Source: a virus
Taxonomy: Duplodnaviria > Caudoviricetes
Virus record (IMG/VR): IMGVR_UViG_3300021961_000135
Span: 1-53,854 of that record
DNA length: 53,854 nt
Reading direction: 5' to 3' (one strand)
The notes under the pieces were generated by a model. That model was not told the origin of the DNA and did not search any database. It saw only the letters and a list, made by a program, of their open reading frames with translations. Of the stretch, positions 17,701 to 44,029 are shown piece after piece. Each line of letters begins with the position of its first letter. Within the stretch, counting starts at the first letter, position 1. The position numbers were made by a program, and so were the translations under genes.

Positions 17701-19516
17701 GAACATAGCGTATGCGTTCCAAGCAATTGGTGAAGGCAAAGGGCCAGCAGGCAAGGACGGCAAGCCGACCAACGCCATGCCTATTCACATGGGCACAGGC
17801 CCCGCGTCTCCAGACGTTATCCGGTTTAACCAAGAACCTGACCCGAACAAACCAAACGACACGGGCGAGCGTTGGCAACGTGTGAAAACAGACGACACGC
17901 TCATGGGTGGTATCCCTGCGCAGTTAATCGTGAAGAGTTTGGAAGGCGCTCACTTGACGCTTCCAGCGTTCTTGAAAGCTGGTGGTTACGCCGCTGACAT
18001 CTTGCGCTCTGGCGTAACTCGTATGCCAATCTACTTGGCTCGTCAGTTGGTTCGTGACCCAATGGCTGCAGCGTTTACGGGCGGTTTGGACTACAACCCC
18101 CTGACAGCGGTGGTTAAAGCAGGCCGTGAGTTCATTGCTTCTAGCCGTGGACAGAGCGCAACCAACGAAGAAATGCTTAAGAAAGGTTTGATCCAGAGCG
18201 GTATCTTTACTGGCGACCCAGACGACATGGCTAAGATAGCACTTCAGTTGGCGGGCGGTAAAGACCAAGGCGTTCTTGACAAAGTGTTTGCCGCAGCGGA
18301 CAGAGCCGCGATGCGTGCCGATGCTGCTACTCGTGCGCTGGTGTATGAAAATGCACGCCGTCAAGGACTGTCTGAAGTTGAAGCGGACATGGCTGTTCGT
18401 GAGTCAATGAACTTTTACAAGCGCGGCTTGTCGCCCACAGTGCAATACGCTAGCCGTTTGATTCCGTTCTTTAACGCGCAGATTCAGGGCTTGAACGTGT
18501 TGTATAAAGCAGCCCGTGGCCAGACTACGCTAGAAGACCAGCGTTTTATTCAGCAGAAGTTCTTTAACAACGCCCTGTTGCTTGTCGGCACGGGTATTGT
18601 TTACGCCATGGCGATGGATGACGATCCATACTTCCGCAACGCCAAGCCAAGGGACAAGTACAGTAACTTCTTCTTGCCGTTGCCGGGTGTTGATGAGCCG
18701 TTGAAGCTGCCTATTCCTTACGAGGCTGGTTGGTTCTTCTCAATGGCTGTTGCCGCAGTTGACGCTATGAAAGAGGAGACTGATGGCGTCCAGCAATGGC
18801 AAGCTCTGCGCGACATGTTCTTGCAGTCCGTGCCGGGTTACTCGTCTAAGTTCATGCCCCAGATTGTCAAGCCAGCGTTTGAAGTGTGGACTAACAAGAA
18901 CTTCTTTAACAACACATCCATTGAGTCTGCAAGAATGGAGAGGCTGTCGCCCGAACAGCGCTTCTCGGAGACAACAACGGAAGCCGCCAAAGCTATGGGT
19001 AAAGCAGTTCCAATACTGTCTCCAATACAGATTGAGCACATTGCTACAGGCTACTTTGGTCAGTTGCCGCTGATTATCGCGGGCGCTGCAAACAGCTTGT
19101 TCCGTACCGAGACTCGTGGTGAAGCGCCTGAAAAGCGTGTGACTGACTTGCCCTTTATTGGCAGTTCGTTCCAGAAGAAGTATGGCGGTGCAGACACCGA
19201 TGTGATGTACCGCTTGTCAACCGAAGCTGTGCAGGCTAAGTCTACCTTTGACAGCCTGCGCAAAAAGGGGCAGGTGACGGAAGCCAAAGATTACTTGGAA
19301 GACAACCGCGTATTGATTGCATCAGCACCCATAGCGCGTAACTACCAGAACATCATGGGTAAACTTCGCTCTGATGCGGAACGCATTAACAGCATGGAAA
19401 ATTTGAGCGGTGCTGAAAAACGTGCGCGGTTGGATAGGATTGACGCGGCACGACAGGATGTGGCTGACAAGTTTGAGAAAGCTATGAAGCGGCTACGAGA
19501 CGGCGATAGAACATAA
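8735..19516 (+). CDS. Giant polyvalent virion protein (zincin HExxH domain, PcfJ-like domain, C-terminal LPD38-like domain)
   Basis: 3593 aa. N-terminal hydrophobic Gly/Ala segment and coiled coils; EILLHEGTHAAV...EFAAE; SWCT...GDFYIYY...VAVRM; C-terminal IPFFNAQIQG...LPIPYEAG...KPAFEVWTNKNFF...SPIQIEH. Confidence 0.75.
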   Translation: MADKIQLPNGAFFPVKEGESKEQTLAVARQMYPDAFAAPVEAGPKQDTTGFKAAASAGATRLGGEFELLKGKLGFKDEAEAQKEFEAAQKRAQARFTPTEEGWTEAPFQKFKETLGGSLPYMAAPAAAGLAALAAPVSAPVAAGLGLLGAGAVSTGQFTGSNLARQMGTDKSLEETSLGKAVGAAIPQALLDTAAMALLPGVGKLFGSVGSKLTTDQAKAIASQTLTRTIADYTAKTGLAMGREGVTEATQQVLERLQAGLAITDEEARKEYIDSFIGGAVLGGAIAPIGRAFERSGAKRQVAELEKTETQQRRAEELQAQKAEKQAAIEAEEAKKSTSQYALDVDSRLEAVKAQIKELDIASKATFEEGDIAAETAKKEAQKAKKALRNSDETKELIKEWNELKQAGRIDAAKEEQRVAGMSPEEYALYQAEQQKQISGKQKIKPTEVGIADPFASVPPAPALTTQYAQERINLAKQQVPEQVALAMQKGPEQDFNVYVDYLMADPYMASQLVKTRTPLPLLVEPQKNQEKQARDQKKAEETVYGGLNLQLKELRLQKAAEAARPNEARLKSVEDEEQAAIQASRAAEAQAVEKAALLERMAPEMQALQRIKNAPSPITQNMEMFKGETAPPSVSPAFSQLQQRLQGIPLEKGTLPTAEEIVPPEEVKRVVTRGEGKEFNLRPISEVTKAPITAENLQGRVNRALSVFDLSPEAETFLRRAEQVIPQADMTLKQATSGATDQGTRQNISESQGFLTLLDRQLAKIESGEEGIPRKGAGRPQMLQTFPPTKQTQAQVSATTPTEAFKKDVDSITGAVPGQARSVPQMEMYAQRERLERTGKPGKLPGFVAQPEEDQRTQGVPGRAVVEKRAQDINPPVYRTDPVTGKREMVSGTIRGKGVEAVPLSLQRELEPLVRLSETVRDEQAGQLPLFGAADERSRVQKAERRGIEAGPSLDIGARPDVESFQRFMNSPYVRKLKQDMQQSEKDLAPVRAFLNRALPRLKQMLQDSKATTARMSKIKNWTKFLKENQELTAFQTNTENMALKMNNLKLSVSDLNARIKSYEQAKEELINEANRSGIRARGGAAETAMLKELDDLIALHEEAKAEYTQTKGALDLVRTQIKVLVGEQRLAELKATVDPLEKSNESAKAEIERLKETIRTAQAEVGEAETKERQAAADKAQAVQGAKAGSVAALEKQISDERARRWNTALSGFPQGVQVRALGPAERDARERGLTADASEAVKYKNELYNKPLISLILELGNIDKQLAEATAKVTAARKKSGSYVGGEQNVMAFKGLGSAIRLQSRLSVRKESVENVINFMRARNVPLRKTLGAQPEARSASIEEQDTLDQYIDQVQELGKATDRLADLTVQRDDAIRDGNTKTVARLNEQIDKVNTEISVGTEGKAKLAVALQGRVSAGARQTTSAPGKFRTGSEESKRTTGSVKQPLVEQRTIKSPTVKQAVAEANAYAEKIRAGQKELTAAQEAAIEAERQAEFQYILEKREADLTTKLEESQRELERLRAIDARPYRENLVRPTEQEKTDLQNEITSFSKELAAVKRELTEQMRKMYRSDTSIVEEDIEAAESKPRGRPRKLTEEDVYGEDTRKAAAMEDVYSQRDDESYARGVESTSPDLTAAQVRALEKNDLRAAFTDMAKDPATSQVNRAVAQRLADMLDDTSVSIQDRVLDENGKAVLGSATSRRINLSRNGGLSQEILLHEGTHAAVERVLQLPEGKLTQQQVVAKRELQALYNAIKSDPKITSASAKGSISEFAAEVMSNQTLQRQLQGKKWRLSDAWAGFKSIIMRLLGVQRPETMFGAALQSVDALMIPSSVRTKGVERVVSRKLAQKDIAALHTGSNSMKQFAEQFGPEIKQKDRTAEDANRIGEDTLEKMYNFPSDYIAKPDPDKLAKNAKVIMSDGKPYDENNPLHYVEADAQTFINLELQKNNRVMQDYAQSIYRKRQQDLRQLVSDFLDTSEYTRVEQALVAKAASKYAVLSDKDGRLKLAEMGKDNTHHLAFVSSKDAGEVIRKLREGLPLKQAFLEGMQEVADRNAEQNAQKNGWQKFEQSTIVKRPAIRIMMYAPNGDVTFDTIEPRNMVPAVPVGGAARVAEPMSLAENLRRTAHAALIRRIEPGALTEERERELPFEVPYFASPRPQRLVFVDNDKNVKVLSLTVAQHALLEHENARLDAEGQPRLGTVDEVAEFLQTYYDEIYSKVKPVEESAAELNAGAAGTSWCTGASVQTARSQIEQGDFYIYYKNGKPEVAVRMDGTTTIGEIRGNTESQGLTSEQELIAKDFLSSTNFAGSQSYITALERKQALLKILKGDIDPRFLMTLGPYISSYGANDTTVEMLLDYSAIDGEMFVRRPDPSRKLIEAVGGKLEEATEKVMEQGYFPGMIAWIGLNDERGSDQMYHVVLSYKGNRVTRPLDGVVAAGKLCFVGGTYELPNLKDVNAVFFDEESDVSLPQIDTVGLVEFGGDKHVHVLRLADNAVVNTVAVAPMGSFRTKQEHTRVRGIIKNATVISNIEVNNGTASMELLLPDALYAPVPNENNTQQDVADNNSRQLLRFFRKLNDKHDFYSIEYKTDDPMTVKMRNATREAFGEDAVTYADDLTYESTSLRSWLEESVMEYFDSQQAKSDTDIFKLAKKINKAFDIAKEDVERVLTDDRNQIGKIFAPKQIADAPPVLQLIEPEETPRYARAADYGTDNALVDLAKDVMAKKKTFKEKLGTTPFLEAEMQLIDMRAGLREALKAGAKEIGDDRLFTQAMSHVIMADQKMAMTNATLQKGPMELYTDEKGFYGVRSTGKDSAVDVFKSVADIPQGNSEAKANIATIYMIAQRALNKGVAKLDLGALGVTEAKLKAALAAADADPKLKLALENTRSAYNAYNEGQIKFLASTGAITKKEADRLLKEGDFVPFYRVNENGMAQLVFSDEVTVTIGDVRRQPYLQELKGGETRILPITETIQRNTLLITDKALTNLATKNIAYAFQAIGEGKGPAGKDGKPTNAMPIHMGTGPASPDVIRFNQEPDPNKPNDTGERWQRVKTDDTLMGGIPAQLIVKSLEGAHLTLPAFLKAGGYAADILRSGVTRMPIYLARQLVRDPMAAAFTGGLDYNPLTAVVKAGREFIASSRGQSATNEEMLKKGLIQSGIFTGDPDDMAKIALQLAGGKDQGVLDKVFAAADRAAMRADAATRALVYENARRQGLSEVEADMAVRESMNFYKRGLSPTVQYASRLIPFFNAQIQGLNVLYKAARGQTTLEDQRFIQQKFFNNALLLVGTGIVYAMAMDDDPYFRNAKPRDKYSNFFLPLPGVDEPLKLPIPYEAGWFFSMAVAAVDAMKEETDGVQQWQALRDMFLQSVPGYSSKFMPQIVKPAFEVWTNKNFFNNTSIESARMERLSPEQRFSETTTEAAKAMGKAVPILSPIQIEHIATGYFGQLPLIIAGAANSLFRTETRGEAPEKRVTDLPFIGSSFQKKYGGADTDVMYRLSTEAVQAKSTFDSLRKKGQVTEAKDYLEDNRVLIASAPIARNYQNIMGKLRSDAERINSMENLSGAEKRARLDRIDAARQDVADKFEKAMKRLRDGDRT

Positions 19517-34411: not shown

Positions 34412-34656
34412 TATTCTCCCCTCGCTTTCAGCATAGCGTCTGCCGTTGAGTAACTACACTTGGCTAAGCGTTCTATTCCCGCTTCACTCCAACCTGTGCA
34501 AGCCGCAAGCATCCCTTGCATAGCCTTAGCCGCAAAGTAATCGCGCAGGGTCATGCCTTCATTGACGATTGTGTCTGGCGCTTTATCGTCGTAGTTGTAT
34601 ACGAGTGCGCTCATGGGAAACGCTGGTGTATTTTTATCCTGCATCTTAACCTCCAA
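34411..34656 (-). CDS. Conserved phage protein (TLRDYFAAKAMQG family)
   Basis: PAFP...GMTLRDYFAAKAMQG...SY..ADAMLKAR. Confidence 0.8.
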   Translation of the reverse strand: MEVKMQDKNTPAFPMSALVYNYDDKAPDTIVNEGMTLRDYFAAKAMQGMLAACTGWSEAGIERLAKCSYSTADAMLKARGE

Positions 34657-35320
34657 ACATCTGCTTCAAGTGCACATACAACTCATGCGCTTGGTACACA
34701 GTCATGTCTTGGAGAATGTCGTGCGGTGTCTTCGTACGCACAAGGGACACGAACGCTTTACGCTGTGTTGTATGCAACAACGGCTCAGACGCGGTAACCC
34801 CACTCATTGCATACGCGGCGGCATCCATTGCGTCTTGGCTAGGCGCAGGCATAAGCGGGTTTTCCAGCTTGGCTTTCAACAGCGCACCGATGCCTGTCGT
34901 GGCTTTCTTCTCGGGCTTTGGCTTCTCTTTCTTCTTGTAGTTAGGGTTCTTGATGGGCTCGTACTCTTTCACATCTGCGTACCACAGGCCGTTGGTGTCG
35001 TGGATCATTTTGCTTCTGCGCATCTGTGCAAGCAAAGACGAGATTGACCCCTTGCCAAAGCCTTGATGCCCAAGCTCTCTGATGATCTCTTGACGCGTAG
35101 AGCCGGGGTTGTCCTTGACATAGTTGAAGGTGACACGGGAGACATTGTTGGTGATTTTGTGTTGATTAAGCATGATTGGTCTTTGAGAAGGTGCGGATAC
35201 AGAGTTGTTGATAGTAGTGCTGATAGTAGAAGAGGTCTGGGGAGATTCCTCCCCGTCATCATCCCACTCGCGCAGAGTGGTACTAAGAGCAGCTTTGAGA
35301 GCAGTTTGAATGTCAGGCAT
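34646..35320 (-). CDS. Winged-helix-like protein
   Basis: Start at MPDIQ after a GGAGG SD; FNYVKDNPGSTRQEII...SISSLLAQM resembles a wHTH. Confidence 0.65.
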   Translation of the reverse strand: MPDIQTALKAALSTTLREWDDDGEESPQTSSTISTTINNSVSAPSQRPIMLNQHKITNNVSRVTFNYVKDNPGSTRQEIIRELGHQGFGKGSISSLLAQMRRSKMIHDTNGLWYADVKEYEPIKNPNYKKKEKPKPEKKATTGIGALLKAKLENPLMPAPSQDAMDAAAYAMSGVTASEPLLHTTQRKAFVSLVRTKTPHDILQDMTVYQAHELYVHLKQMFGG

Positions 35321-35531
35321 TTGAGGTTCCTCCAGTAAGTAGCATGACGATGGCGATGAAAGCAATGAGTCCGATGGACTGTATTGTGGTGAGAGTAAGC
35401 TCATCCATACCCTGCCTGTCACCAAGCAGCAAGCCCTGCACCCAAGTTTCCTCGGGCGTAGGTAGTGGGGATGGGGGTGTATAGAGCAAGCCAATCTTGA
35501 CCTTGCCCGTGTCGTAAGGTGTGTTTTTCAT
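35313..35531 (-). CDS. Small membrane protein
   Basis: PYDTGKVKIG N-terminus and a C-terminal hydrophobic helix. Confidence 0.7.
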   Translation of the reverse strand: MKNTPYDTGKVKIGLLYTPPSPLPTPEETWVQGLLLGDRQGMDELTLTTIQSIGLIAFIAIVMLLTGGTSNA

Positions 35532-35550
35532 TATTTCTCCTTGAGGGTTA

Positions 35551-35580
35551 TATTTTTGTCCAAGGCTGGACACAAGTCAA
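35551..35580 (-). promoter_or_regulatory. Operator-like palindrome within a possible promoter
   Basis: TGTCCAAGGCTGGACA (35557-35572) lies just downstream of a - strand TTGACT; the -10 element is weak. Confidence 0.45.
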
Positions 35581-35669
35581 TAGGGTCGCCAATAAAAAAG
35601 ATCGAGCATAAGTACAATTACGGATAACAAAAGTACTACCCGCTCAAGTTTTTCCCATTTAGTCAGCAT
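35577..35669 (-). CDS. 30-aa membrane peptide (not in ORF track)
   Basis: MLTKWEKLERVVLLLSVIVLMLDLFYWRPY, AGGAGG SD. Confidence 0.7.
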   Translation of the reverse strand: MLTKWEKLERVVLLLSVIVLMLDLFYWRPY

Positions 35670-35832
35670 TTGCCATCCTCCTGTTGTCCATGTAATCCAT
35701 TGATGCGAACCAAGCCGCACGCCATACCTCGTACATACGCCCCTTGAGGGGGAAGTCCTGTACCTTGTAATCGGGGAAGGTTTGCTTGCACCATTGGCGG
35801 TATGCGTTGTTGATGCGTGTGTCTAGTTTCAT
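35659..35832 (-). CDS. 57-aa hypothetical protein (not in ORF track)
   Basis: MKLDTRINNAYRQWC...VWRAAW; AAGGAGG SD; coupled ORF. Confidence 0.65.
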   Translation of the reverse strand: MKLDTRINNAYRQWCKQTFPDYKVQDFPLKGRMYEVWRAAWFASMDYMDNRRMANAD

Positions 35833-36008
35833 TGCTCGCCCTCCTTGCGCAGGGGCTCGATGTTCAAGTCCTTCAGTACACGCGACACAAGCGTGTAGAC
35901 ATCCTCGATGTATGTGATGCGGTACTCAGCGGGGTCGTTGACATAGTCACGCAAGTCCGCCTCGATGAATTGCAGATCACGCATGATCTCTTGTGTTACT
36001 ACTTTCAT
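35829..36008 (-). CDS. 59-aa hypothetical protein (not in ORF track)
   Basis: MKVVTQEIMRDLQFIEADL...; AAGGAG SD; coupled ORF. Confidence 0.65.
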   Translation of the reverse strand: MKVVTQEIMRDLQFIEADLRDYVNDPAEYRITYIEDVYTLVSRVLKDLNIEPLRKEGEQ

Positions 36009-36367
36009 TTACTCTCTCCTTTGATTAACACACGGGGCAGATCAATCATCCATTCGTAGTTGTCCATGCCCGTAACTGGATCAACCTTGTACACATTGAC
36101 ATTGAACCAATCATCGTTGTCAGGCGAGTGGATGTTGAACGAGTACTCATCTGTGCCATGCCACCAGTCGCCATCTCTGACGATCTCGTGTTTGTACTTG
36201 GCGATGAGGTCATCGGCAATTATTTGCAGTTGTGCGTCTGTCATTTGCTTTCTCCTTTGGTTGGTTTTTAAAACATAGAGAGCGTCAGGTCTGCTTGCAA
36301 ACCATTGGCTCAGTTGGGGGTTATCGTCTTGCATCAGTAGTGGCGGAGGCCACCCCGTCTTAGTCAT
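36005..36367 (-). CDS. Hypothetical protein (second internal start at 36244)
   Basis: MTKTGWPPPLLMQDD with AGGAGG SD; the internal MTDAQ also has an AGGAG SD. Confidence 0.6.
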   Translation of the reverse strand: MTKTGWPPPLLMQDDNPQLSQWFASRPDALYVLKTNQRRKQMTDAQLQIIADDLIAKYKHEIVRDGDWWHGTDEYSFNIHSPDNDDWFNVNVYKVDPVTGMDNYEWMIDLPRVLIKGESK

Positions 36368-36379
36368 ACATCCTCCTAT

Positions 36380-36403
36380 AAAAATGTGGGGGCAAGCCCC
36401 CAC
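36380..36403 (-). terminator. Intrinsic terminator after the amidotransferase gene
   Basis: GTGGGGG-CTTG-CCCCCAC-ATTTTT on the - strand. Confidence 0.65.
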
Positions 36404-36409
36404 TACGAA

Positions 36410-37528
36410 TCAAGTCAACAGCGCAGGTAGTACTGGCTTGAAGACTGCAGGCTTGCGTACATCCCATTGCAGGTAGTAGCAGATGACCTCAGCGATAGCT
36501 GTGACTGTATGGAACGACTTGGTCGCGGCACTGATAAGACCAGACGCATCGCCCTCCACCAGCATATCGTATATGCCTTGCTCGGCAAAGCACAGGTCAT
36601 CACGATGCGAGTAGCTAAGCGCAGACGCTTGGAAGCAGTGCAGTAGCGTAGTCAGCGTGTACGCAGGCATCTGGTCAAGCCAGACCTCGATGCTGTCCAC
36701 ATCAGCCTCCAGCACCGCATTGGCAATCTCATCAGCTTCAGGGCGCACAAAGCCATCCTCATCAGCATCGGCATCTGGGAACTCGTAAGACGCCTCGTCG
36801 TAGTTGGCGCTGTGTGCGCTAGCCTTGCGTGGATAGATGCCAAAGCTTGCGTTGTAGTCGTACATCTCGTCGTACTCGTCATCCATGTAGTTGCCGTAGC
36901 CACTCGTGTACTTGTACGACTTGAGCGCAGTCGTGCTTTTGTAGCTGGGTATAAGACGCGATGGAGTCCAAGCGTAGGTATTGCTGAACCACATATCGTC
37001 ATGCTCGATACCTTGATCGAAGTTGACATGCTGCATACGACCCTCGCCGTTCATGAACACGAAGCGATTGTTGCCGATGAACTCCTCCATCATAGACACG
37101 AAGCCCTTGTCGTACACAAGGTCAGGGGCAGAGGACACAGCGCTGTGCAAGTAGTCCTTGATGAAGTGCCATGTATCTGACTTGGACTTGTCAGCGGCAT
37201 TGCCCGTGTGCAGTACGCCGTTGTGCATCATGGCGATGAAGCCAGGAATCACATCATAGGGATGGCAGTTGAGCATATCGGTCTTGCCGTGTGTAGTCCA
37301 GCGGAAGTGAATAGCGATCTCACGCTCGTCTTGAGGCAGGCGCTGAATGAATGCAGTAGCATCGCCAAGATTCTTGGGCAAGGTCTTGGTGACCTTGAGC
37401 CCCTTGGCTGTGCCATACATGAACCCAATGCCGTCAGGGTTGGAGGTGAAGATGTCGCTGAGTAAACCGTGCGTGTCGAGCAGGGTTGAACGAACTTTGG
37501 AAGACTTGCCAGTAATAATGAGACACAT
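36410..37528 (-). CDS. Class II (Ntn) glutamine amidotransferase
   Basis: N-terminal Cys2 (MCLII), NPDGIG, HFRWTTHG, NCHPY, MHNG, SDT. Confidence 0.9.
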   Translation of the reverse strand: MCLIITGKSSKVRSTLLDTHGLLSDIFTSNPDGIGFMYGTAKGLKVTKTLPKNLGDATAFIQRLPQDEREIAIHFRWTTHGKTDMLNCHPYDVIPGFIAMMHNGVLHTGNAADKSKSDTWHFIKDYLHSAVSSAPDLVYDKGFVSMMEEFIGNNRFVFMNGEGRMQHVNFDQGIEHDDMWFSNTYAWTPSRLIPSYKSTTALKSYKYTSGYGNYMDDEYDEMYDYNASFGIYPRKASAHSANYDEASYEFPDADADEDGFVRPEADEIANAVLEADVDSIEVWLDQMPAYTLTTLLHCFQASALSYSHRDDLCFAEQGIYDMLVEGDASGLISAATKSFHTVTAIAEVICYYLQWDVRKPAVFKPVLPALLT

Positions 37529-37585
37529 AATAAACTCCTTGAGAAAAAGAATGGGGGGGTTTCTCCCCGCTTGGTTGTTGTTGAA

Positions 37586-39667
37586 TTAAACAGGTTGATC
37601 GGCAGACACTTCGTACGAGCACTGCGCCATAGTTGCCGCGAATGACTCGTTCATAAGAACCCACAACTCATTGACACGCATATACACGACATCGCCAGCA
37701 GCGATGGTGTCCATGTCGCCGTACGGGAAGAACGCATACTCAGAGCCTGCGTATGTAGCGAAGCGGAAGTACAGGTTGTTGCGCTCTACCCATGTCCTGA
37801 TGGTCTCAGCCTCGCTGTCGTAGGGTATGTGCATGGGGTAGTCATGGTTGTGCCTGTGCTCTGTGTACTGAGGTTGCCACGGGGCAGGGGGCACAGCGTC
37901 AGCGCAGGTCTCTGAAGCAGGTGCGATGACTGTTGGCGTAGAGGTATGTATCTGACGCACGCCATACCACTTGGTCAGCGCAGGGTACTGGCCGACAACA
38001 GTACGAAGCCACTTGATGAACGATGCACCATTGAGATCACGCCACGATGCGACACGGCAGAACATGACAGCGGCATGAGTGAACTCGATCTGTGCAAGGA
38101 GGCGTTCTTTCTTGAGTGATGCACGGAAGATGCGAAGCTCGACAGTGTTGTACTTGCCGTTGTAGCTGTTGTCCATGCTAAGACCAAGACGCAGAGCCTC
38201 ACGCTTGCCAAGGTTCATCATGTTGACCATGCGATAGCGCTCACCAGACTTATTCTTGACAGCCTGCTTGGGGTTGACAAGTATGGACTGATGCTCAGCG
38301 GCGCAGTAGCTACGGGCTTGGTCATCGACAGATGGATGGCGACCAGCAATCTTACGAATGAAGTCGACATTGCCGTTGCTGTTGATGAACATGAGGAACT
38401 TGCCAAGCGTCAACTGCGTGAAGGCACGAGAGTCAATGTGGATGTGCATACCGCACTTGCCCGTGTTCCATGCACGATAGGCAGGGTCAATGTCCCAAGC
38501 CTTGAATGTCTCGATGTGCTTGGTCAAGCCGTGTGGCATGGTCACAACCTCGAAGCCGTTGTGCGGTAGAGAGCCGTCACTCTTGATGATGCAGTATGAG
38601 GAACCGAGACGGCTACGCACAGACTCAGCGGCTGGGTGAGTATCGCTGTCACCCGAAGTCATCTCAAGCTCGATGCCCATCGTGAACTCCCCGAAGTGAG
38701 AAGACCTGATGCCTGAGTCGGAGTCAAGCACATTGAGCACATTGGTAGAGTACGACATGATTGGCTGATCTCTATCGTCGTCATCGCTGTCTTCATCATC
38801 GTCGCTGTCGTCACGATCATAGGTGTAGTAGCAGTCGTCACGATCACTGTAGTACGCATCGTCACGAGGCCAGTACTCATCGTTGTCCTCGCAGTACACA
38901 GCGTCATCCTCGAAGCATGAGTCACACCAAGTATCACGGCGCACATCGTGCGTGTTGTTCTCGTCTTCGTAGTGACCGCAGTCGCAGTGCACGATGCCCA
39001 TGTCCATGTCATTGATGGCATTGAACGCGCTGTCCAAGTGACTGTTGAAGTCGCCGTAGCGGTTGGATAAGTCAAAGAACGAGGTGCGTATCTCATCATT
39101 GCTGATGGACTCATCGCCTGCCTTGGCACGAGCAACGAGATGCCCGAAGTTCTTGAACGAACTGCGTATGAGGTTGTACCCATCATTGCTGAAGTGATGA
39201 CCGCCCTTGAACACAGCGTGTGGGTTATCAGTGTGACCAGCATACGCAACAGGATCATGCTTGCGTGCATAAGCCTCAACGACCTGATCGATACGCACAG
39301 ACAGCCTACTGCGAGCAAGTCGTGGCATATCATCCATGAGTTTAGGTGTCAGCAGTCTACGCATCATCTGATGCATATCGTAGCGATCACGGCTCTCATC
39401 ACTAGCCTCCTTGTATGTGATGGCACGAGGTGCATGAGCAAGATCACCTCTGACACGATAGCGTGAGACGCGAGTCCACAGCGCAAGGTTGTCGTTGGTA
39501 AGCAGATCAAGCGGTGACTTGAAGTTTGCTGACATAGAGTCACTGACAGTCAAGCGCCTACGAGATGCGTTGTACACCATGTAGCGGTTGTTGAGTGACA
39601 CGACAAACATGATGGCGTTGGAAGAGTCAATGAAGTCTTCCATAACAAAGCGAGTGAATTGAAACAT
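37586..39667 (-). CDS. Putative amidoligase (COOH-NH2 ligase, Amidoligase_2-like) with Cys-rich and acidic N-terminal extension
   Basis: GIELEM, KSDGSL, GFEVVT, CGMHIHI, RYRMVN, TVELRIF; upstream CDC/CDSC and a poly-Asp tract. Confidence 0.85.
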   Translation of the reverse strand: MFQFTRFVMEDFIDSSNAIMFVVSLNNRYMVYNASRRRLTVSDSMSANFKSPLDLLTNDNLALWTRVSRYRVRGDLAHAPRAITYKEASDESRDRYDMHQMMRRLLTPKLMDDMPRLARSRLSVRIDQVVEAYARKHDPVAYAGHTDNPHAVFKGGHHFSNDGYNLIRSSFKNFGHLVARAKAGDESISNDEIRTSFFDLSNRYGDFNSHLDSAFNAINDMDMGIVHCDCGHYEDENNTHDVRRDTWCDSCFEDDAVYCEDNDEYWPRDDAYYSDRDDCYYTYDRDDSDDDEDSDDDDRDQPIMSYSTNVLNVLDSDSGIRSSHFGEFTMGIELEMTSGDSDTHPAAESVRSRLGSSYCIIKSDGSLPHNGFEVVTMPHGLTKHIETFKAWDIDPAYRAWNTGKCGMHIHIDSRAFTQLTLGKFLMFINSNGNVDFIRKIAGRHPSVDDQARSYCAAEHQSILVNPKQAVKNKSGERYRMVNMMNLGKREALRLGLSMDNSYNGKYNTVELRIFRASLKKERLLAQIEFTHAAVMFCRVASWRDLNGASFIKWLRTVVGQYPALTKWYGVRQIHTSTPTVIAPASETCADAVPPAPWQPQYTEHRHNHDYPMHIPYDSEAETIRTWVERNNLYFRFATYAGSEYAFFPYGDMDTIAAGDVVYMRVNELWVLMNESFAATMAQCSYEVSADQPV

Positions 39668-39734
39668 ATGTTTCTCCTTGAGTTATATAAAAAGATGGGG
39701 AGAAAGTCTCCCCGACTAACACACGAACACGATC

Positions 39735-39977
39735 TCAACAGACCGCAGGCACCTCCATTTCTTCTAGTACATCGTATGAGTGGATCTCGAATGTGTTGTG
39801 CTCACCCACGATTGGATCGCCTGAACTTATGACATACGAGATGTCATCGTATAAGCGCAGGATGTCGTCACACATTGAGTCGGACAACTCGGTTGGCATA
39901 ACCAAACAGCGAGCGCTGAACGCATTGCTGAATGGTGGACGGGCTATGCCGTGGACTTGCAATAGAACTACTTTCAT
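39735..39977 (-). CDS. Hypothetical early protein
   Basis: AAGGAG SD; coupled ORF. Confidence 0.65.
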   Translation of the reverse strand: MKVVLLQVHGIARPPFSNAFSARCLVMPTELSDSMCDDILRLYDDISYVISSGDPIVGEHNTFEIHSYDVLEEMEVPAVC

Positions 39978-40180
39978 TTGGCTTCTCCTTTTCTTACTAA
40001 TTCAACTTCATCATCTGAAAGACACAGGTGTGCCCAACTCATCCAGTCCCCATCATTGGGGTTAAAGATGTATCCGTTCAACCCCTCTGAATGTCCCGAA
40101 TCGCCCATGCGTATCCAATCTACTGAGTTGATACGCACAATAGACCCTGCTGGTAGGTCTTTAATTTCTTCTGCTCTCAT
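39974..40180 (-). CDS. Hypothetical early protein
   Basis: AGGAG SD; coupled ORF. Confidence 0.65.
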   Translation of the reverse strand: MRAEEIKDLPAGSIVRINSVDWIRMGDSGHSEGLNGYIFNPNDGDWMSWAHLCLSDDEVELVRKGEAK

Positions 40181-40407
40181 TATTTGCTCCTGTTGTTGAT
40201 TGCTTCCAATGCCTCGTCAGCACACGCACGCCATGCGGCTTCGCTGATGAATGTGTTATCCGTTGACCAAGGCGGTGAGACTTTGGTTTGTTCTGAGTAC
40301 TTGGCGATAGCCTCGATGAGGAACGCCTGCATGAGTACGCCTTGCTTGCTGTAGGACATAAGCCCGTTGATAAGCTCGGCGTTGGTTTGGTGTTTAGCTT
40401 TCTTCAT
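40180..40407 (-). CDS. Hypothetical early protein
   Basis: MKKAKHQTN...QAFLIEAI..YS...AWRACA; AGGAG SD. Confidence 0.7.
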   Translation of the reverse strand: MKKAKHQTNAELINGLMSYSKQGVLMQAFLIEAIAKYSEQTKVSPPWSTDNTFISEAAWRACADEALEAINNRSK

Positions 40408-40585
40408 TTTGATTCTCCTCTTTGATTTGCAATACATACTGTTGGTTTAAGTGGTCGGGCTTGTATGTGCTGAACCCGCCATTGGCGAAGAACTGCACTA
40501 CATCGTTTAGCTTGTCAGGGTTCTCGATAGCAAACACAAGCTCGTTCTTGGTCAGCGCCAAGATCATTTCTTTTCTTGTCGTCAT
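40394..40585 (-). CDS. Hypothetical early protein
   Basis: MTTRKEMILALT; AAGGAG SD. Confidence 0.6.
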   Translation of the reverse strand: MTTRKEMILALTKNELVFAIENPDKLNDVVQFFANGGFSTYKPDHLNQQYVLQIKEENQNEES

Positions 40586-40708
40586 TTTGTTTCTCCTTGA
40601 AATAGGCAGGTTGCGGATGGTGTGCGGCATTGCCCAAGCGCCACGCACAGGGAATTCCCTTGGGGAGAAAGTCTCCCCAAAAGAAATGTTGATAGTTGAT
40701 GATAGTAG

Positions 40709-41413
40709 TCAGTCCTCCCCTAAAGAGAGTTTTGTCCATGTGGCAGGCACAGCTTCGTTCTTATCAAGCGCTTCAATAATCTTGATGGCTTGCTTGATTC
40801 GCCTGAGTTTGGCTGTGCGTTGGTCTGTGGCGTTGATGGCTATCTGCCGTTCTAGCGTTTCCATCTCTTTCCTTGTCTTGGTCAATAATCTCACCTTGGC
40901 TGTCTCGTGCTGATGGGGCAGCATGGTGCGTTGGAATGGCGTCTTGCGTTTGCCCCTTGGGGTTACTGGAACTTCGTTGAAGAGTAGAGTCACCTTGTCC
41001 TTGACCCTTGCAGGTATCCAGTCAGTCCAATGCTCGCCATCGTTGGGCAGTCCCTTGTCACGGGCTATCTGTATGGGCGTGTGATCTAACGCTTTGTATG
41101 GTGCGTCTAGCATGGCTACAAGTTTTTCCATGATGCGGATGTATTCACCGAACGCTAGCGTTCTTTCTGGGGAGACTTTCTCCCCGCCGTATCTCATGCC
41201 GACCTTGGCATTATTGATTTCGTAGCGCAGGGGTTGCAGTACTTTGTCCCACTCTGCCTTGCGCTGGGTGCGTGTGATACGGGAGACTCGAAGCGTTTCT
41301 TTGAGGTCAGCGACCTCTTGTTTGATGCGCTCGATCTCTGCGGGGTGTAGTTTGCGCTCAGTCAGGCGGTTGTGAAGGGCGTTGGGTGTGAGTTTGAGGT
41401 ATGTTTCGTACAT
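40709..41413 (-). CDS. Hypothetical helical early protein adjacent to the putative origin
   Basis: 234-aa basic helical ORF with NDGEHWTDWIP and VPATW motifs. Confidence 0.75.
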   Translation of the reverse strand: MYETYLKLTPNALHNRLTERKLHPAEIERIKQEVADLKETLRVSRITRTQRKAEWDKVLQPLRYEINNAKVGMRYGGEKVSPERTLAFGEYIRIMEKLVAMLDAPYKALDHTPIQIARDKGLPNDGEHWTDWIPARVKDKVTLLFNEVPVTPRGKRKTPFQRTMLPHQHETAKVRLLTKTRKEMETLERQIAINATDQRTAKLRRIKQAIKIIEALDKNEAVPATWTKLSLGED

Positions 41414-41774
41414 GAGATTATTGACTCCGAAATTGAGAGGCGGCCAAATGTCCAACACTACAGGGCGTAGACTAAGTTTGGTGTAGGCTCTGAAGCCGCA
41501 CCAATGCTAGCTTAGCACGAAAACTGTCCGATGTATCTATGTAATTTCTGGGAAGCTAACGCCAACCAAAAAAAGAAAGTCTTTGAGAAAGCGGAAATGC
41601 TCACCCCCTGATACATACATCTCTATATATATTTATATATATTATAGATAGATAGATAGGACAGTTTTTGCGGAACGCTAGTGTTCATGCGGGTTGCGGG
41701 GTTACACCAAACTTAGTTCGGGGGTTGTAGTGTTGGACATTTGGCCGTGACTGGTTTTTTGACTCAATAATCTC
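41414..41774. repeat. Long block-conserved inverted repeat around an AT-rich core (putative replication origin)
   Basis: Arms 41414-41540 and 41648-41774 align without gaps about an axis at 41594; core contains ATAC/TATA/ATAG runs. Confidence 0.8.
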
Positions 41775-41777
41775 GCA

Positions 41778-42017
41778 CTATAGTGCAGATGGGGAGACTT
41801 TCTCCCCAAAAGGCAGGTCGAGTTGGTGCATACCATTCTTCCATTGGTCATACGCTTGCTGCGTTTCGAACACAAGACCACGCAGATGTAGCGCACCTTT
41901 GACGAACACATGAACCTGATGGTTCGTGCCATAGATGATTGTCTGCATATGGTAGTCACGCCCTCTGATGGTGACGATGCCGACTTCTTTTGTGACGGGC
42001 TGAATGAGGTTACGCAT
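41778..42017 (-). CDS. Hypothetical early protein
   Basis: AAGGAGATCATC-ATG start. Confidence 0.7.
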   Translation of the reverse strand: MRNLIQPVTKEVGIVTIRGRDYHMQTIIYGTNHQVHVFVKGALHLRGLVFETQQAYDQWKNGMHQLDLPFGEKVSPSAL

Positions 42018-42027
42018 GATGATCTCC

Positions 42028-42222
42028 TTAGTTGCTGTGGTGAAGACGGGCGTAACGGCTCATGGCTTTGAGCATTACCTTTTGTGGGATGCGGTAGTCA
42101 TTAGCCAATGCCTTGGCAAGTGTGGGCAACAGGTGTGCTTGTACACAACGGATGGCGTTGTGTAACTCGTGAAGGATTCGCTTGGCATCCCGTGTGTCGA
42201 GGGTGTGTTGTTTGAGGGACAT
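42028..42222 (-). CDS. Hypothetical early protein
   Basis: AAGGAGATCATC-ATG start. Confidence 0.7.
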   Translation of the reverse strand: MSLKQHTLDTRDAKRILHELHNAIRCVQAHLLPTLAKALANDYRIPQKVMLKAMSRYARLHHSN

Positions 42223-42232
42223 GATGATCTCC

Positions 42233-42391
42233 TTAAGTGTTGTCGTGCTTGGTGATGAGTGTTGCGCCTTGCCACAGTTCTACGACTGTGAAGTGCTTTG
42301 ACAAAGTGCTGAAAAGAACTAAGGCGTCAATGTAGTTGTCTGCCTTGTATGTGCGGTCAAAACCGCTGTCGCGAAGGATTACTGAGTGCAT
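42233..42391 (-). CDS. Hypothetical early protein (52 aa)
   Basis: AAGGAGATCATC-ATG start at MHSVILR. Confidence 0.7.
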   Translation of the reverse strand: MHSVILRDSGFDRTYKADNYIDALVLFSTLSKHFTVVELWQGATLITKHDNT

Positions 42392-42492
42392 GATGATCTC
42401 CTTGAGATTATTGATTGGACAAAGAATGAAACACCGCAAGGGCTTGGCTCTTGCGGTGATCTGACAGAAACGGGGAGAAAGTCTCCCCAAGA

Positions 42493-42960
42493 TTATTGAA
42501 AGGACACAGAGTCACGCAACTGAGCAAGCAAGGCATCGAACTGTGCCTTGGTCAAGCCTGCGTCAATAATCTCGCTGACGATGTTGCTCACCAGTTGCTT
42601 GGGTACAGCGACTGTAGGTTTCTTGCCGTCTGATTTCTCAGGGCGACTGATGTGGTAGCGGAACTTCGCCTTGCCTGCATTGACGGCAAGCTCCTCAGTT
42701 CTGGTGCGCTCTGTGCGTTTCTTGCCGTAGGCTTTGGTTGCCTGAGCAAGCGTCATGGGCTTGATCTCTTTGCGAACGGCTGTGTAGCCAACCATGTAGT
42801 GCGTCACATAGCGTTGCTCCCAATCTGCTTTGTGCTCTGCTTCGAGTGCCACATACTGTGTGTGATATGTGTCGCTTGCATTTAGCACAGACGCATCGTT
42901 CTTACCGCAACCCTCCGCAAACTGTTCGTAGGTGTAGGTTGTTGCTTTTGCTTTAGTCAT
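42493..42960 (-). CDS. First early gene, hypothetical
   Basis: AAGGAGATCATC-ATG start; 155 aa; flanked by two 17-bp palindromes. Confidence 0.75.
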   Translation of the reverse strand: MTKAKATTYTYEQFAEGCGKNDASVLNASDTYHTQYVALEAEHKADWEQRYVTHYMVGYTAVRKEIKPMTLAQATKAYGKKRTERTRTEELAVNAGKAKFRYHISRPEKSDGKKPTVAVPKQLVSNIVSEIIDAGLTKAQFDALLAQLRDSVSFQ

Positions 42961-43043
42961 GATGATCTCCTTGAGTTGACTAAGTTGTAATGTCGGGGAG
43001 AAAGTCTCCCCGAATCGGCAGGGCTTGTCCCAACCGATGCCTC

Positions 43044-43053
43044 AATATTACCA
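43044..43053 (-). promoter_or_regulatory. Extended -10 promoter for the early operon
   Basis: TGG-TAATAT on the - strand, followed by a leader hairpin ATCGGTTGGG-ACAAG-CCCTGCCGAT. No clear -35. Confidence 0.45.
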
Positions 43054-43254
43054 AATGGGTACTTTATTCTGCTTTCAGGGCTACAAATGCGAACGAAAGA
43101 ACCCCACCCTACCCCCATGCCCCCTAAAAAGGGTGTAGGCGTTTACGTCTATAAACACTGTTTCTCACCCGCAAATCCAATTTTTCAAAACCTCATTTTC
43201 CCCCAACGCCAAAACGCCACCCCCCACCCCACTATAAAAATTTTCAAAGACTCT

Positions 43255-43270
43255 TGTCCAAGGTTTGACA
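43255..43270. promoter_or_regulatory. Operator-like palindrome
   Basis: TGTCCAAGGTTTGACA, third copy of the motif seen at 24970 and 35557. Confidence 0.55.
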
Positions 43271-43278
43271 TGCCCAAT

Positions 43279-43310
43279 AAAAAAGAGCCCCGAACCTTTC
43301 GATCCGGGGC
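43279..43310 (-). terminator. Intrinsic terminator (- strand)
   Basis: GCCCCGGATC-GAAA-GGTTCGGGGC-TCTTTTTT. Confidence 0.65.
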
Positions 43311-43363
43311 GCAAGGAGGTTTCCCTCAAGGAGAAGCAACTGAACAATTCAACAAAAGAAGAC

Positions 43364-43393
43364 TTGCACTGTTGCCGAAAAGAAGTGTACACT
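43364..43393 (+). promoter_or_regulatory. sigma70-type promoter for packaging/head genes
   Basis: TTGCAC-N18-TACACT, ~45 bp upstream of the small terminase candidate. Confidence 0.45.
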
Positions 43394-43438
43394 AACACCA
43401 ACGAGGCCACAAGCACCCGCCAGTGCCGACCCTACGCA

Positions 43439-44029
43439 ATGCTAGAACATCTTATTCACGGCGAATTTCACCCAGACGTGGTCGACATGACTGCGGCTAC
43501 GCTTTTGCCGCTTGATAAGGCCGAGCCTGCAACCATCATTGACGCACAAGTCAAGACAGCAGAGTGGCTCAAGGACTTGGAACTAGACGACGAAGCGGCA
43601 GAGTCCAAGGCAGACGCCCAAGCAGCGCGTCAATCGTTTGCTTCTCTTGTCACAGGCCAGCCACCACAGAATACACAGCAAGCACTTGCTAACATTAAAG
43701 CGCCAGCGGCAGTCCAGCACCTAGTGGGGATGCTCACAGCCTACGACTGGGCGTTTGTGGAGCAGGCTAAAGAACTGCGCGGGTTTGCCGTGGCTAAGAT
43801 CCTTGAGGAAGTAGACCATCCCGACGCCCGCATCCGGCTCAAGGCGCTAGACATGCTAGGTAAGGTTACGGAAGTGGCGCTGTTCACTGAGCGTGTTGAG
43901 GTCAAGAAGACTGAGATGTCGGACATAGAGCTTGAAAACCGCATTAAGGACAAGCTCAATAGGTTCATGGGCGTGATTGATGTGGTAGATGTGTCTGAAG
44001 AAGCCGTGAAAGATGCAGATGAAGACTGA
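43439..44029 (+). CDS. terS: Terminase small subunit (putative)
   Basis: Directly upstream of terL; RIRLKALDMLGK...LFTERVEV. Confidence 0.7.
   Translation: MLEHLIHGEFHPDVVDMTAATLLPLDKAEPATIIDAQVKTAEWLKDLELDDEAAESKADAQAARQSFASLVTGQPPQNTQQALANIKAPAAVQHLVGMLTAYDWAFVEQAKELRGFAVAKILEEVDHPDARIRLKALDMLGKVTEVALFTERVEVKKTEMSDIELENRIKDKLNRFMGVIDVVDVSEEAVKDADED

Follow-up and report, generated by a model that had tools for sequence, protein, structure and literature searches.

In phage lambda, the early operon reads pL-nutL-N-tL1, such that the first gene follows a hairpin-forming site and precedes a terminator, the downstream genes require read-through, and the system is specific to the phage type. 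A short arginine-rich peptide of N, a disordered monomer, reads the conserved loop of the boxB hairpin; there are two nut sites, which are not translated, and the terminators are tL1 and tR1. A second arrangement is represented by the phiC31 repressor with its conserved inverted repeats, C1 of P1, and KorB of RK2, where one regulator serves many dispersed (near-)palindromic operators over early units; all of these regulators come from known DNA-binding families, with sites located at promoters. The subject of this report is a repeated palindrome, together with gp1, the product of the adjacent first early gene, in the virus record IMGVR_UViG_3300021961_000135 (Duplodnaviria; Caudoviricetes) of IMG/VR. 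The record is a linear contig of 53,854 bp, rated 83% complete, and all of it was analysed; this whole stretch is called "the window" below.

Three further systems resemble the locus in part. In Cluster A mycobacteriophages such as L5 and Bxb1, stoperators are present in many copies within transcribed regions, mostly between genes, and the motif varies between related phages with the phage's own regulator, whose binding stops elongating RNA polymerase (portions of PMC9283540 and PMC6550527). Stoperators are further described as asymmetric, mostly in one orientation, distributed genome-wide, and bound by a monomeric helix-turn-helix (HTH) repressor of temperate phages (portions of PMC9283540). 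The hairpin promoters of the N4 virion RNA polymerase (vRNAP) depend on specific loop and stem bases of the template strand, namely a purine at -11, G at -10, G at -8, and C at +1, with a fixed start and a single orientation (portions of PMC4496689). Finally, the promoter-early stem-loop (PeSL) cassettes of T4-type phages combine a strong sigma-70 promoter with a stem-loop and take part in modular shuffling (portions of PMC2839356).

A palindrome array at the start of the early arm

The window carries six exact matches to GGGGAGA-NNN-TCTCCCC (GGGGAGANNNTCTCCCC) within 3.3 kb, along with two degenerate copies, GGGGAGATTCCTCCCC at 35239 and GGGGGGGTTTCTCCCC at 37553 (Table 1). None of 100 dinucleotide-preserving shuffles contained any match to GGGGAGANNNTCTCCCC (0 expected), and a scan of the whole record for the 17-mer with up to three mismatches returned the same six places only (12 matches, counting both strands; 0.05 expected). 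An earlier note on this DNA, made from the letters alone, had listed these same six exact and two degenerate copies and none elsewhere, and the scans bear it out. The stem is 7 bp and the centre 3 nt in 6/6 copies. On the plus strand the loop reads AAG at 42995, 42472, 40662, and 39697, copies that lie upstream of the next minus-strand ATG at distances of 35, 81, 77, and 30 nt, and CTT at 41169 and 41791.

All genes from 19648 to 42960 are on the minus strand and include DNA polymerase, helicase, primase, and nucleases, while the plus strand from about 43265 encodes terminase, portal, capsid, and then (past the contig break) virion proteins, the last of which is a protein of 3593 aa. Given the gene order and strands around 42960/43265, the palindromes occupy the start of the leftward early arm, spanning its first 3.3 kb, or 8 kb if the degenerate copies are counted.

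The exact 17-mer was found in 74 stretches of IMG/VR, many of them on contigs with several copies. Among the genomes of 185,579 species, it was found once each in 50 stretches from unrelated taxa, as against a chance expectation of about 70 (596 Gb, both strands, our own arithmetic). These counts bear on the outcome that the earlier note had set against its own proposal, i.e., a host-derived repeat of the repetitive extragenic palindrome (REP) type or a host regulator site. Only the GC-rich palindromic form speaks for such an origin. The motif stands at about chance level in the species genomes, a collection from which the host's genome may be absent, and the arms differ between closely related phages; a host origin is, in our view, barely conceivable.

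Each relative carries its own palindrome at conserved positions

Homologs of the 234-aa protein (40709-41413), at 78-92%, 52-57%, and ~30% identity, were used to recruit 69 loci from viral contigs, giving 70 sources together with the window. The loci are metagenomic and many are fragments, such that the rows counted below are distinct sequences and not independent events. A palindrome family of at least three copies with arms of at least 6 nt was present in 65/70 sources, and four of the remaining five had shorter arms. At least 12 arm types were recognised: GGGGAGA, GGGGAAC, GGGGAAA, GGGGACA, GGGGACT, GGGGAC, GGGGAA, GGGGTG, GGGTCA, CGATTCAG, GTGACAC, and TTCAC. Each related locus has 3-8 copies with uniform arms; among the 12 patterns screened, types besides the modal one (and those nested with it) occurred at most once per locus. 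In five relatives taken whole (47-60.6 kb), all 4-7 copies are confined to the early region. The feature is family-wide and real.

The positions of the sites are likewise conserved. In all clades, one site lies 17-35 nt upstream of the gp1 start (site 1) and another 2-9 nt past the gp1 stop (site 2), and further sites are found at about -394 of the 234-aa gene and just past that gene (+735). A site at +228, inside the 234-aa gene, is limited to the close clade and is of each genome's own palindrome type. Additional sites lie ahead of the 693-aa and 372-aa genes and within the 282-aa gene. Even the degenerate copies of the window have better-formed counterparts: relatives carry perfect own-type palindromes at the position homologous to 37553, and several relatives from both clades do so at the position homologous to 35239. 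A search blind to type returned the arms of site 2 at -394 in 60/66 loci (3 without a perfect palindrome and 3 with a different one), at +735 in 54/57 loci (1 without and 2 different), and at site 1 in 53/66 loci (12 without and 1 different). The flanks show no conservation beyond one base on each side. Confinement to the early region and the conserved layout among relatives support the earlier proposal of an array of recognition sites limited to first-expressed DNA.

The centre behaves quite differently from the arms, ranging from 1 to 4 nt, varying in sequence within and between genomes, and occurring in either orientation at homologous sites. The shared orientation of the four intergenic copies, to which the earlier note drew attention, is indeed seen in the window (all AAG) but carries no meaning, because AAG and CTT are inverted at homologous sites in relatives. 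This freedom of the centre also bears on the suggestion that the palindromes are N4-like hairpin promoters on extruded single-stranded DNA, with the 3593-aa virion protein, once injected, supplying the RNA polymerase domain that reads them. The 7-bp stem and 3-nt loop in the window, the location of the sites at the start of the early arm, and the presence of a giant virion protein would all suit it. However, a centre that varies in sequence and length (1-4 nt) and flips is at odds with the fixed bases required by N4 (portions of PMC4496689), and some sites are inside genes or directly past stop codons. No polymerase was detected in the 3593-aa protein by Pfam (E up to 10), PHROGs, or a PDB sequence search, sequence-level comparisons that may miss a very remote relative, the motifs RxxxKx(6-8)YG and DxDGD were not found in it, and a PHROG scan of the 63 window proteins and, in a complete relative, 30 proteins revealed no RNA polymerase. 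With a loop neither conserved nor fixed in orientation and no polymerase signature found, the N4 analogy of the earlier note is not supported, and we consider it most improbable.

Variation between the sites raises the question of whether the repeats serve mainly as recombination points for early-gene modules, either as PeSL-like boundary cassettes or as a small mobile element. Gene content between sites differs among relatives, contigs skip 39977-40182, and the sequence right after the intragenic site varies in length. Against this, of 106 distinct end points of homology between the window and the 69 loci, 9 fell within 30 nt of a site, where random placement gave 5.9 on average (P = 0.13), and the palindromes carry no attached promoter: the 8 kb at 36000-44000 hold four promoter-like matches, none beside a palindrome, versus 7.1 in shuffles. 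Recombination alone would also leave unexplained why the arms change with gp1 (see below), and this account is very unlikely.

Sites imposed on coding sequence

Three of the sites lie in translated sequence. As the earlier note had read them, the two reversed copies at 41169 and 41791 both encode GEKVSP and the degenerate copy at 35239 encodes GEESP, and translation confirms each. Among relatives, the intragenic position of the 234-aa gene reads GGEKVSPE, GGEKSPQ, GGEISPQ, GGENSPQ, GGELVPQ, or GGEQVPQ, matching the palindrome type of the genome; the 52-57% clade has unrelated sequence there. Because the encoded peptide changes with the palindrome type, it is the nucleic-acid signal that dictates the codons, just as had been proposed, and translated sites that follow the type are easier to understand as DNA sites than as RNA sites. 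The locus offers a case of a 16-17-nt nucleic-acid signal overriding protein-coding sequence.

The first early gene tracks the palindrome type

Homologs of gp1 occupy the same position in 68/70 sources, the two misses being truncated loci. When the palindrome type is expressed as one of 15 labels (arms plus centre length) and placed on the gp1 tree of 68 rows, 16 changes are needed and the minimum is 14, i.e., an excess of 2; shuffled labels require 43-47 or more changes (mean 47). All trees were quick maximum-likelihood trees, and the gp1 tree was rebuilt on exactly the same loci for each gene with which it was compared. Each of the other early genes compared fits less well: the 234-aa gene has 9 excess changes (63 rows; gp1 on the same loci, 2), the 79-aa gene 13 (59 rows; gp1, 2), the 75-aa gene 14 (43 rows; gp1, 1), the 80-aa gene 10 (39 rows; gp1, 2), the 693-aa gene 9 (31 rows; gp1, 1), the 372-aa gene 4 (21 rows; gp1, 0), and the 282-aa gene 1 (13 rows; gp1, 0). 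Proximity alone does not explain the better fit of gp1, because the 234-aa gene, too, has neighbouring sites on both sides and one inside it, three in all.

The linkage extends to fine differences. In the close clade, gp1 alleles split the 7+3+7 palindrome types from the 7+2+7 types. A95 of the window gp1 (in AVNAG) is A or S in sequences with AGA arms and T or C in those with AAC arms, in 36/36 sequences, a covariation that is only suggestive. The type-specific part of gp1 is its N-terminal ~100 residues, and a C-terminal module of ~40 residues is exchanged independently. The earlier note had proposed asking whether related phages carry their own palindrome co-varying with one early protein; they do, and the protein is the 42493-42960 product, gp1. 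That product was one of three candidate binders then named, and the other two fare worse, with 9 excess changes against 2 for the 40709-41413 product and 1 in 13 rows against 0 for the 34646-35494 product.

The same comparison weakens the view that these are replication or partition sites, in which gp1 or the 234-aa protein would bind iterons or parS-like centromere sites beside 41414-41774. Palindromic, multi-copy sites do cluster around an AT-rich, origin-like region, and a dimeric binder is predicted (see below). Yet family searches of the region turned up neither ParB nor ParA nor an initiator, and the sites, rather than being gathered at one locus, extend over 3-8 kb along gene boundaries and terminators. 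The 234-aa gene, moreover, tracks the palindrome type poorly, and a replication or partition role is highly improbable.

The gp1 protein

Members of the gp1 family are ~130-156 aa in length and basic, with a median isoelectric point of 9.5 in 54 distinct sequences. The isoelectric point was dropped as evidence; other open reading frames of 100-250 aa, a set that includes spurious ones, have a median of 9.8. Residues 70-120 of gp1 contain 13 K/R and 5 D/E. Searches of Pfam, PHROG, and NCBIfam gave no family match and no HTH. A collection of 5.8 billion proteins yielded 726 homologs at E <= 0.001, the best 120 of which are without a domain or an informative name.

AlphaFold models of two gp1 types are helical, with predicted local distance difference test (pLDDT) values of 75.5 and 80.3, and a Foldseek comparison of both with the PDB returned nothing at E <= 0.001. 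The wide VIA-align search gave a best Z of 5.1 for the first gp1 model (4cgr_A; root-mean-square deviation (rmsd) 2.9, 79 aligned) and 5.7 for the second (3j6b_L; rmsd 3.4, 71 aligned), a range common for helical models. In BFVD only uncharacterised proteins of uncultured phages were matched, and the weak leads in Protein Atlas, at 0.81 (unnamed) and 0.75-0.76 (DUF3102), are below the meaningful level.

When two copies of gp1 were modelled together, a symmetric homodimer was predicted with a score of 0.83, versus 0.02 for the best of three controls; in three runs the contact agreement was at least 95% and the partner pLDDT at least 83. In calibration, this mark was reached by 20/30 solved homodimers and 1/23 monomers, figures that apply here roughly, as our own alignment was used. 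A predicted symmetric dimer of this kind would fit a dyad-symmetric site in duplex DNA.

Transcriptional layout of the early operon

Directly after site 2 lies t1, an intrinsic-terminator-like hairpin (CACCGCAAG/CTTGCGGTG) whose stem is unlike the palindrome type and which is followed by GTTTCATTTCTTG. A hairpin with at least 5 T in the next 10 nt follows site 2 in 45/46 distinct sequences from relatives, and the alignment reveals compensatory stem changes (CACCGC/GCGGTG, CAGCGC/GCGCTG, CAACGC/GCGTTG, and ACGCAC/GTGCGT). The hairpins were counted sequence by sequence; RNAalifold returned no consensus on the mixed alignment, in which two stem versions were misaligned. The conserved order is thus site 1, gp1, site 2, t1, and the remaining early genes, and gp1 alone among the phage proteins is made ahead of the remaining operon, its gene being the sole one upstream of t1. 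From t1 to the Shine-Dalgarno (SD) sequence of gene 2 is ~25 nt, and neither inspection of the sequence nor a promoter scan found a promoter-like match between t1 and gene 2.

Positions 43287-43310, just upstream of the predicted early promoter (Table 1), hold a strong terminator-like hairpin on the minus strand (10 pairs, then TCTTTTTTAT), which may shield the early operon against transcription reading in from the right. In the same upstream region, the sense (minus) strand of 43100-43230 contains several runs of 4-7 G.

As an RNA hairpin, the window palindrome has a predicted energy of -10.9 kcal/mol, and a terminator scan lists the copies at 39697 and 42472 as terminator-like. The downstream sites differ from the other classes in this respect. 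At least 6 T in the 10 nt after the palindrome were found in 54% of 61 downstream-class copies, 15% of 41 copies of site 2, 17% of 46 at +735, 3% of 30 at site 1, and 0/28 at the intragenic site. Site 1 has 2.07 T on average in this interval and the intragenic site 0.68, and 19 site 1 centres are pyrimidine-rich and 12 purine-rich. Imperfect copies show no strand asymmetry, with G.T and A.C mismatches about equal.

Such features could mean that gp1 recognises palindrome hairpins in the nascent transcript and thereby brings about read-through of t1 and of the palindrome-U-run terminators, an immediate-early to delayed-early switch like that of lambda N/nut in which the terminator stems would themselves be the recognition elements. 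The layout of promoter, site 1, gp1, site 2, and t1 is conserved, as just described, with gp1 the sole product made before t1 and the short interval from t1 to the gene 2 SD leaving no room for a promoter. Downstream copies have sense-strand T-runs and pyrimidine-rich loops, a centre of 1-4 nt that is mixed in some genomes suits a loop, and residues 70-120 of gp1 form an arginine/lysine-rich stretch. On the other hand, three sites are translated and ribosomes would unfold the hairpin there, the loop sequence is free and flips, unlike boxB, and a single hairpin stem offers a predicted symmetric homodimer no symmetric target. In addition, among the sense-strand mismatches of the imperfect copies, those compatible with G.U are no commoner than A.C. 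Recognition in RNA is accordingly a possibility that we rate below recognition in DNA but above the other alternatives.

A simpler account dispenses with a dedicated binder altogether. The palindromes would be ordinary terminators, attenuators, or mRNA-stabilising hairpins, gene conversion would homogenise the stems, and the match with gp1 would reflect physical linkage. The hairpin energy, the T-runs after many downstream copies, and the two copies listed in the terminator scan are in its favour, as is the fact that gp1 adjoins sites 1 and 2. Nevertheless, site 1 and the intragenic sites lack a T-run yet are perfect and type-matched, and a separate terminator without type specificity, t1, is already present after gp1. 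The 234-aa gene, with its three sites, tracks the type far worse than gp1 (9 vs. 2 excess changes), and exchange of gp1 without selection for a match should leave many mixed genomes, of which few are seen. Linkage without a binder is, on balance, unlikely.

Proposed mechanism and significance

The reading we favour, with somewhat less than even confidence, is that the palindromes are recognition sites for gp1 in duplex DNA and control transcription through the early operon. A host-type promoter would drive a short immediate-early unit consisting of the leader, site 1, gp1, site 2, and t1. As gp1 accumulated, its dimers would bind the two-fold symmetric sites, which enclose the gp1 gene and are spaced at 0.5-1 kb, more widely further along, over the first 3-8 kb of the operon. 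Bound gp1 would then control the passage of RNA polymerase in the manner of a stoperator, resulting in autoregulation together with gating or shut-off of early transcription. Each lineage would have re-specified the arms and spacing of its site together with the N-terminal domain of gp1. Binding by gp1, DNA rather than RNA as its target, and the direction of the effect on transcription are all points that we infer. The DNA version is preferred because the predicted dimer matches the site in its two-fold symmetry, three sites are translated, the spacing co-varies with the gp1 allele, and the imperfect copies are without asymmetry. The DNA and RNA versions are not mutually exclusive, because one sequence can be both a DNA site and the stem of an RNA terminator.

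Several observations weigh against duplex recognition. Centre length is mixed in some genomes (2 and 3 nt in the related loci L266 and L310, 3 and 4 nt in L322), a mixture that a hairpin would accommodate more readily than a rigid dimer bound to duplex DNA. The downstream copies look like RNA-level terminators, with a mean of 5.67 T in the ten sense-strand bases after the palindrome and a ratio of pyrimidine-rich to purine-rich centres of 47:8. The lack of a promoter-like sequence between t1 and gene 2 argues for a factor that favours read-through over one that blocks it. As for gp1 itself, Pfam, NCBIfam, PDB, and fold searches found no recognisable DNA-binding motif or known fold, the covariation at A95 amounts to only 2-3 independent switches, and gp1 adjoins two sites, such that part of its linkage could be hitch-hiking.

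A bolder proposal is that gp1 represents a new family of immediate-early regulators with an undescribed fold and a "programmable" palindrome, its arms and spacing re-specified in close relatives a dozen times or more, and, in its boldest form, that a matching gp1 licenses read-through of its own terminator stems. We hold this to be doubtful; if true, the resulting lineage-private antitermination code would also insulate co-infecting relatives from each other.

Should the pairing of gp1 and palindrome hold, it would offer a natural series of matched protein/site variants that differ in single arm positions and in spacing, well suited to studies of how specificity is rewritten, and small orthogonal regulator/site pairs for synthetic biology could follow. 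It would also explain the timing of early genes in a phage without an RNA polymerase of its own (none found in scans). The group to which the phage belongs is common in metagenomes of estuaries, lakes, and drinking water, and gp1, with its 726 unnamed homologs, has none in 50,697 GenBank phage records.

Genomic setting and neighbouring features

Metagenomes with near-identical DNA come from estuary, marine, lake, freshwater, and drinking-water samples, with 18 studies among the matches listed, most of which contain just a portion of the stretch. Four runs with an RNA or possible RNA label contain contigs of relatives only, and transcript starts and ends could not be read from them. The large terminase is ~50% identical to those of the Pelagibacter phages HTVC023P/027P, phage 023Pt_psg01, and DSL-LC04. 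In DSL-LC04, the closest cultured relative by terminase that was inspected (first 50 kb), the gene order differs and there is no repeated palindrome family, and the paper on HTVC023P-type pelagiphages (PMC9599517) has no mention of palindromes, inverted repeats, hairpins, promoters, RNA polymerase, or early genes. The DNA of 39500-43300 had no match in the 50,697 GenBank phage records, and tblastn against GenBank phages with the first 3000 aa of the giant protein, the 234-aa protein, and two gp1 types likewise gave no match. PHROG scans of the window proteins detected no integrase or lysogeny genes.

Table 1. Palindrome copies, the candidate binder, and transcription signals of the early region, with positions in the window.
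Feature	Position	Strand	Remarks
Palindrome copy 1 (site 1)	42995..43011		Leader, 35 nt upstream of gp1 start codon
Palindrome copy 2 (site 2)	42472..42488		5 nt past gp1 stop codon
Palindrome copy 3	41791..41807		Overlaps last codons of 41778-42017; ~394 nt upstream of 234-aa gene
Palindrome copy 4	41169..41185		Within 234-aa gene (40709-41413); encodes GEKVSP
Palindrome copy 5	40662..40678		31 nt past 234-aa gene stop
Palindrome copy 6	39697..39713		On sense (minus) strand followed by ATCTTTTTAT, SD and ATG of 693-aa gene; terminator-like
Degenerate copy	37553..37568		Between 693-aa and 372-aa genes; sense-strand T-run after it
Degenerate copy, 6-bp arms	35239..35254		Within 34646-35494 (282-aa gene); encodes GEESP
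gp1, first early gene, 155 aa	42493..42960	-	Candidate binder, from position and tree vs. palindrome type
t1, intrinsic-terminator-like hairpin, then T-run	42420..42458	-	Between gp1 and gene 2
Sigma-70-like promoter match (TGGACA-18-TATAGT), candidate	43231..43260	-	Upstream of early operon; consensus only
Second possible -10 (TAATAT), candidate	43045-43050	-	TAnnnT kept in relatives, read by eye

Other repeats accompany the palindromes. Palindromes of the sequence GGGAATTCCC, at 40650-40659, adjoin the copy after the 234-aa gene and are doubled as GGGAATTCCCATGGGAATTCCC in some relatives (L303, L305, and L306, near +735). Direct repeats of CTATCAAC-like words (actatcaacactactatcaac), iteron-like in look, adjoin two palindrome positions, at ~40679-40705 and on the sense-strand downstream side (lower coordinates) of 35239, inside the 282-aa gene. 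The 11-mer GAGATTATTGA (TCAATAATCTC on the opposite strand) forms a second repeat, with six copies in both orientations, at 19694, 40882, 41414, 41764, 42404, and 42563, and in 3-6 copies per locus in relatives of both clades; it overlaps the region of the gp1 stop codon and lies just upstream of several start sites.

Inverted copies of this 11-mer (GAGATTATTGA/TCAATAATCTC) also form the edges of 41414-41774, a non-coding stretch of ~360 bp between gene 41778-42017 and the 234-aa gene. Its AT-rich core, made up of TA and GATA runs, lies between the arms of a long imperfect inverted repeat (ggccaaatgtccaacactaca ... tgtagtgttggacatttggcc), and the stretch could be an origin or a regulated promoter region.

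The small early genes 39974-40180 and 40394-40585 have 1 and 0 homologs, respectively, among the 69 loci, and contigs from other runs join across 39977-40182 and 40395-40581, indicating variable cassettes. The 693-aa early protein (37586-39667) contains an amidoligase-like domain (Pfam Amidoligase_2, E 5.6e-06), and its gene comes immediately after a terminator-like copy of the palindrome. The 3593-aa virion protein (8735-19516) has LPD38 as its sole Pfam domain, at 3305-3475 (E 3.7e-25), two PHROGs without known function in its C-terminal part, and an HEGTH zincin-like (HExxH) motif near residue 1721, features that we take to fit the "polyvalent protein" class. The giant protein of a relative is 72% identical at the C-terminal end and only 28-61% elsewhere.

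Comparison with known systems

The interpretation that fits the palindromes and gp1 best is a regulator/site pair not described before but of a familiar general type, namely a phage-specific regulator with multiple cognate sites. What sets it apart is a palindrome that is found on both sides of the regulator gene, serves also as terminator stems, shapes the coding sequence in which it lies, and is re-specified often among close relatives.

As with N4, the locus combines GC-rich hairpin repeats (a stem of 5-7 bp and a 3-nt loop) leading the early region with a podovirus-like genome and a packaged protein of ~3500 aa (portions of PMC4496689). Unlike N4, there are no fixed loop or stem bases and no single orientation here, and no T7-like polymerase was found. 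PeSL cassettes are comparable in that repeated stem-loops, some of them terminator-like, lie between small early genes of a variable region (portions of PMC2839356), whereas the repeats described here have no attached promoter, breakpoints are not enriched at them, and their stems co-vary with one protein.

The order of promoter, site, first gene, and terminator is that of lambda N/nut, t1 being present in 45/46 relatives' sequences. The two differ in that here the loop is free and the stem specific, there are 6-9 sites, and some are in coding sequence; moreover, gp1 is predicted to be a folded dimer and has no similarity to N. Finally, the likeness to the stoperators of Cluster A mycobacteriophages lies in the multiple sites inside transcription units (six exact and two degenerate here, 3-8 per related locus) and in a site motif that appears, from the tree comparison (2 excess changes in 68 rows), to vary with the candidate regulator gp1. 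The sites differ from stoperators in being perfect palindromes with a variable centre, in occurring only within the first 3-8 kb of the early operon, and in enclosing the regulator gene, and gp1, a predicted dimer with no detectable HTH, differs likewise from the stoperators' repressor.

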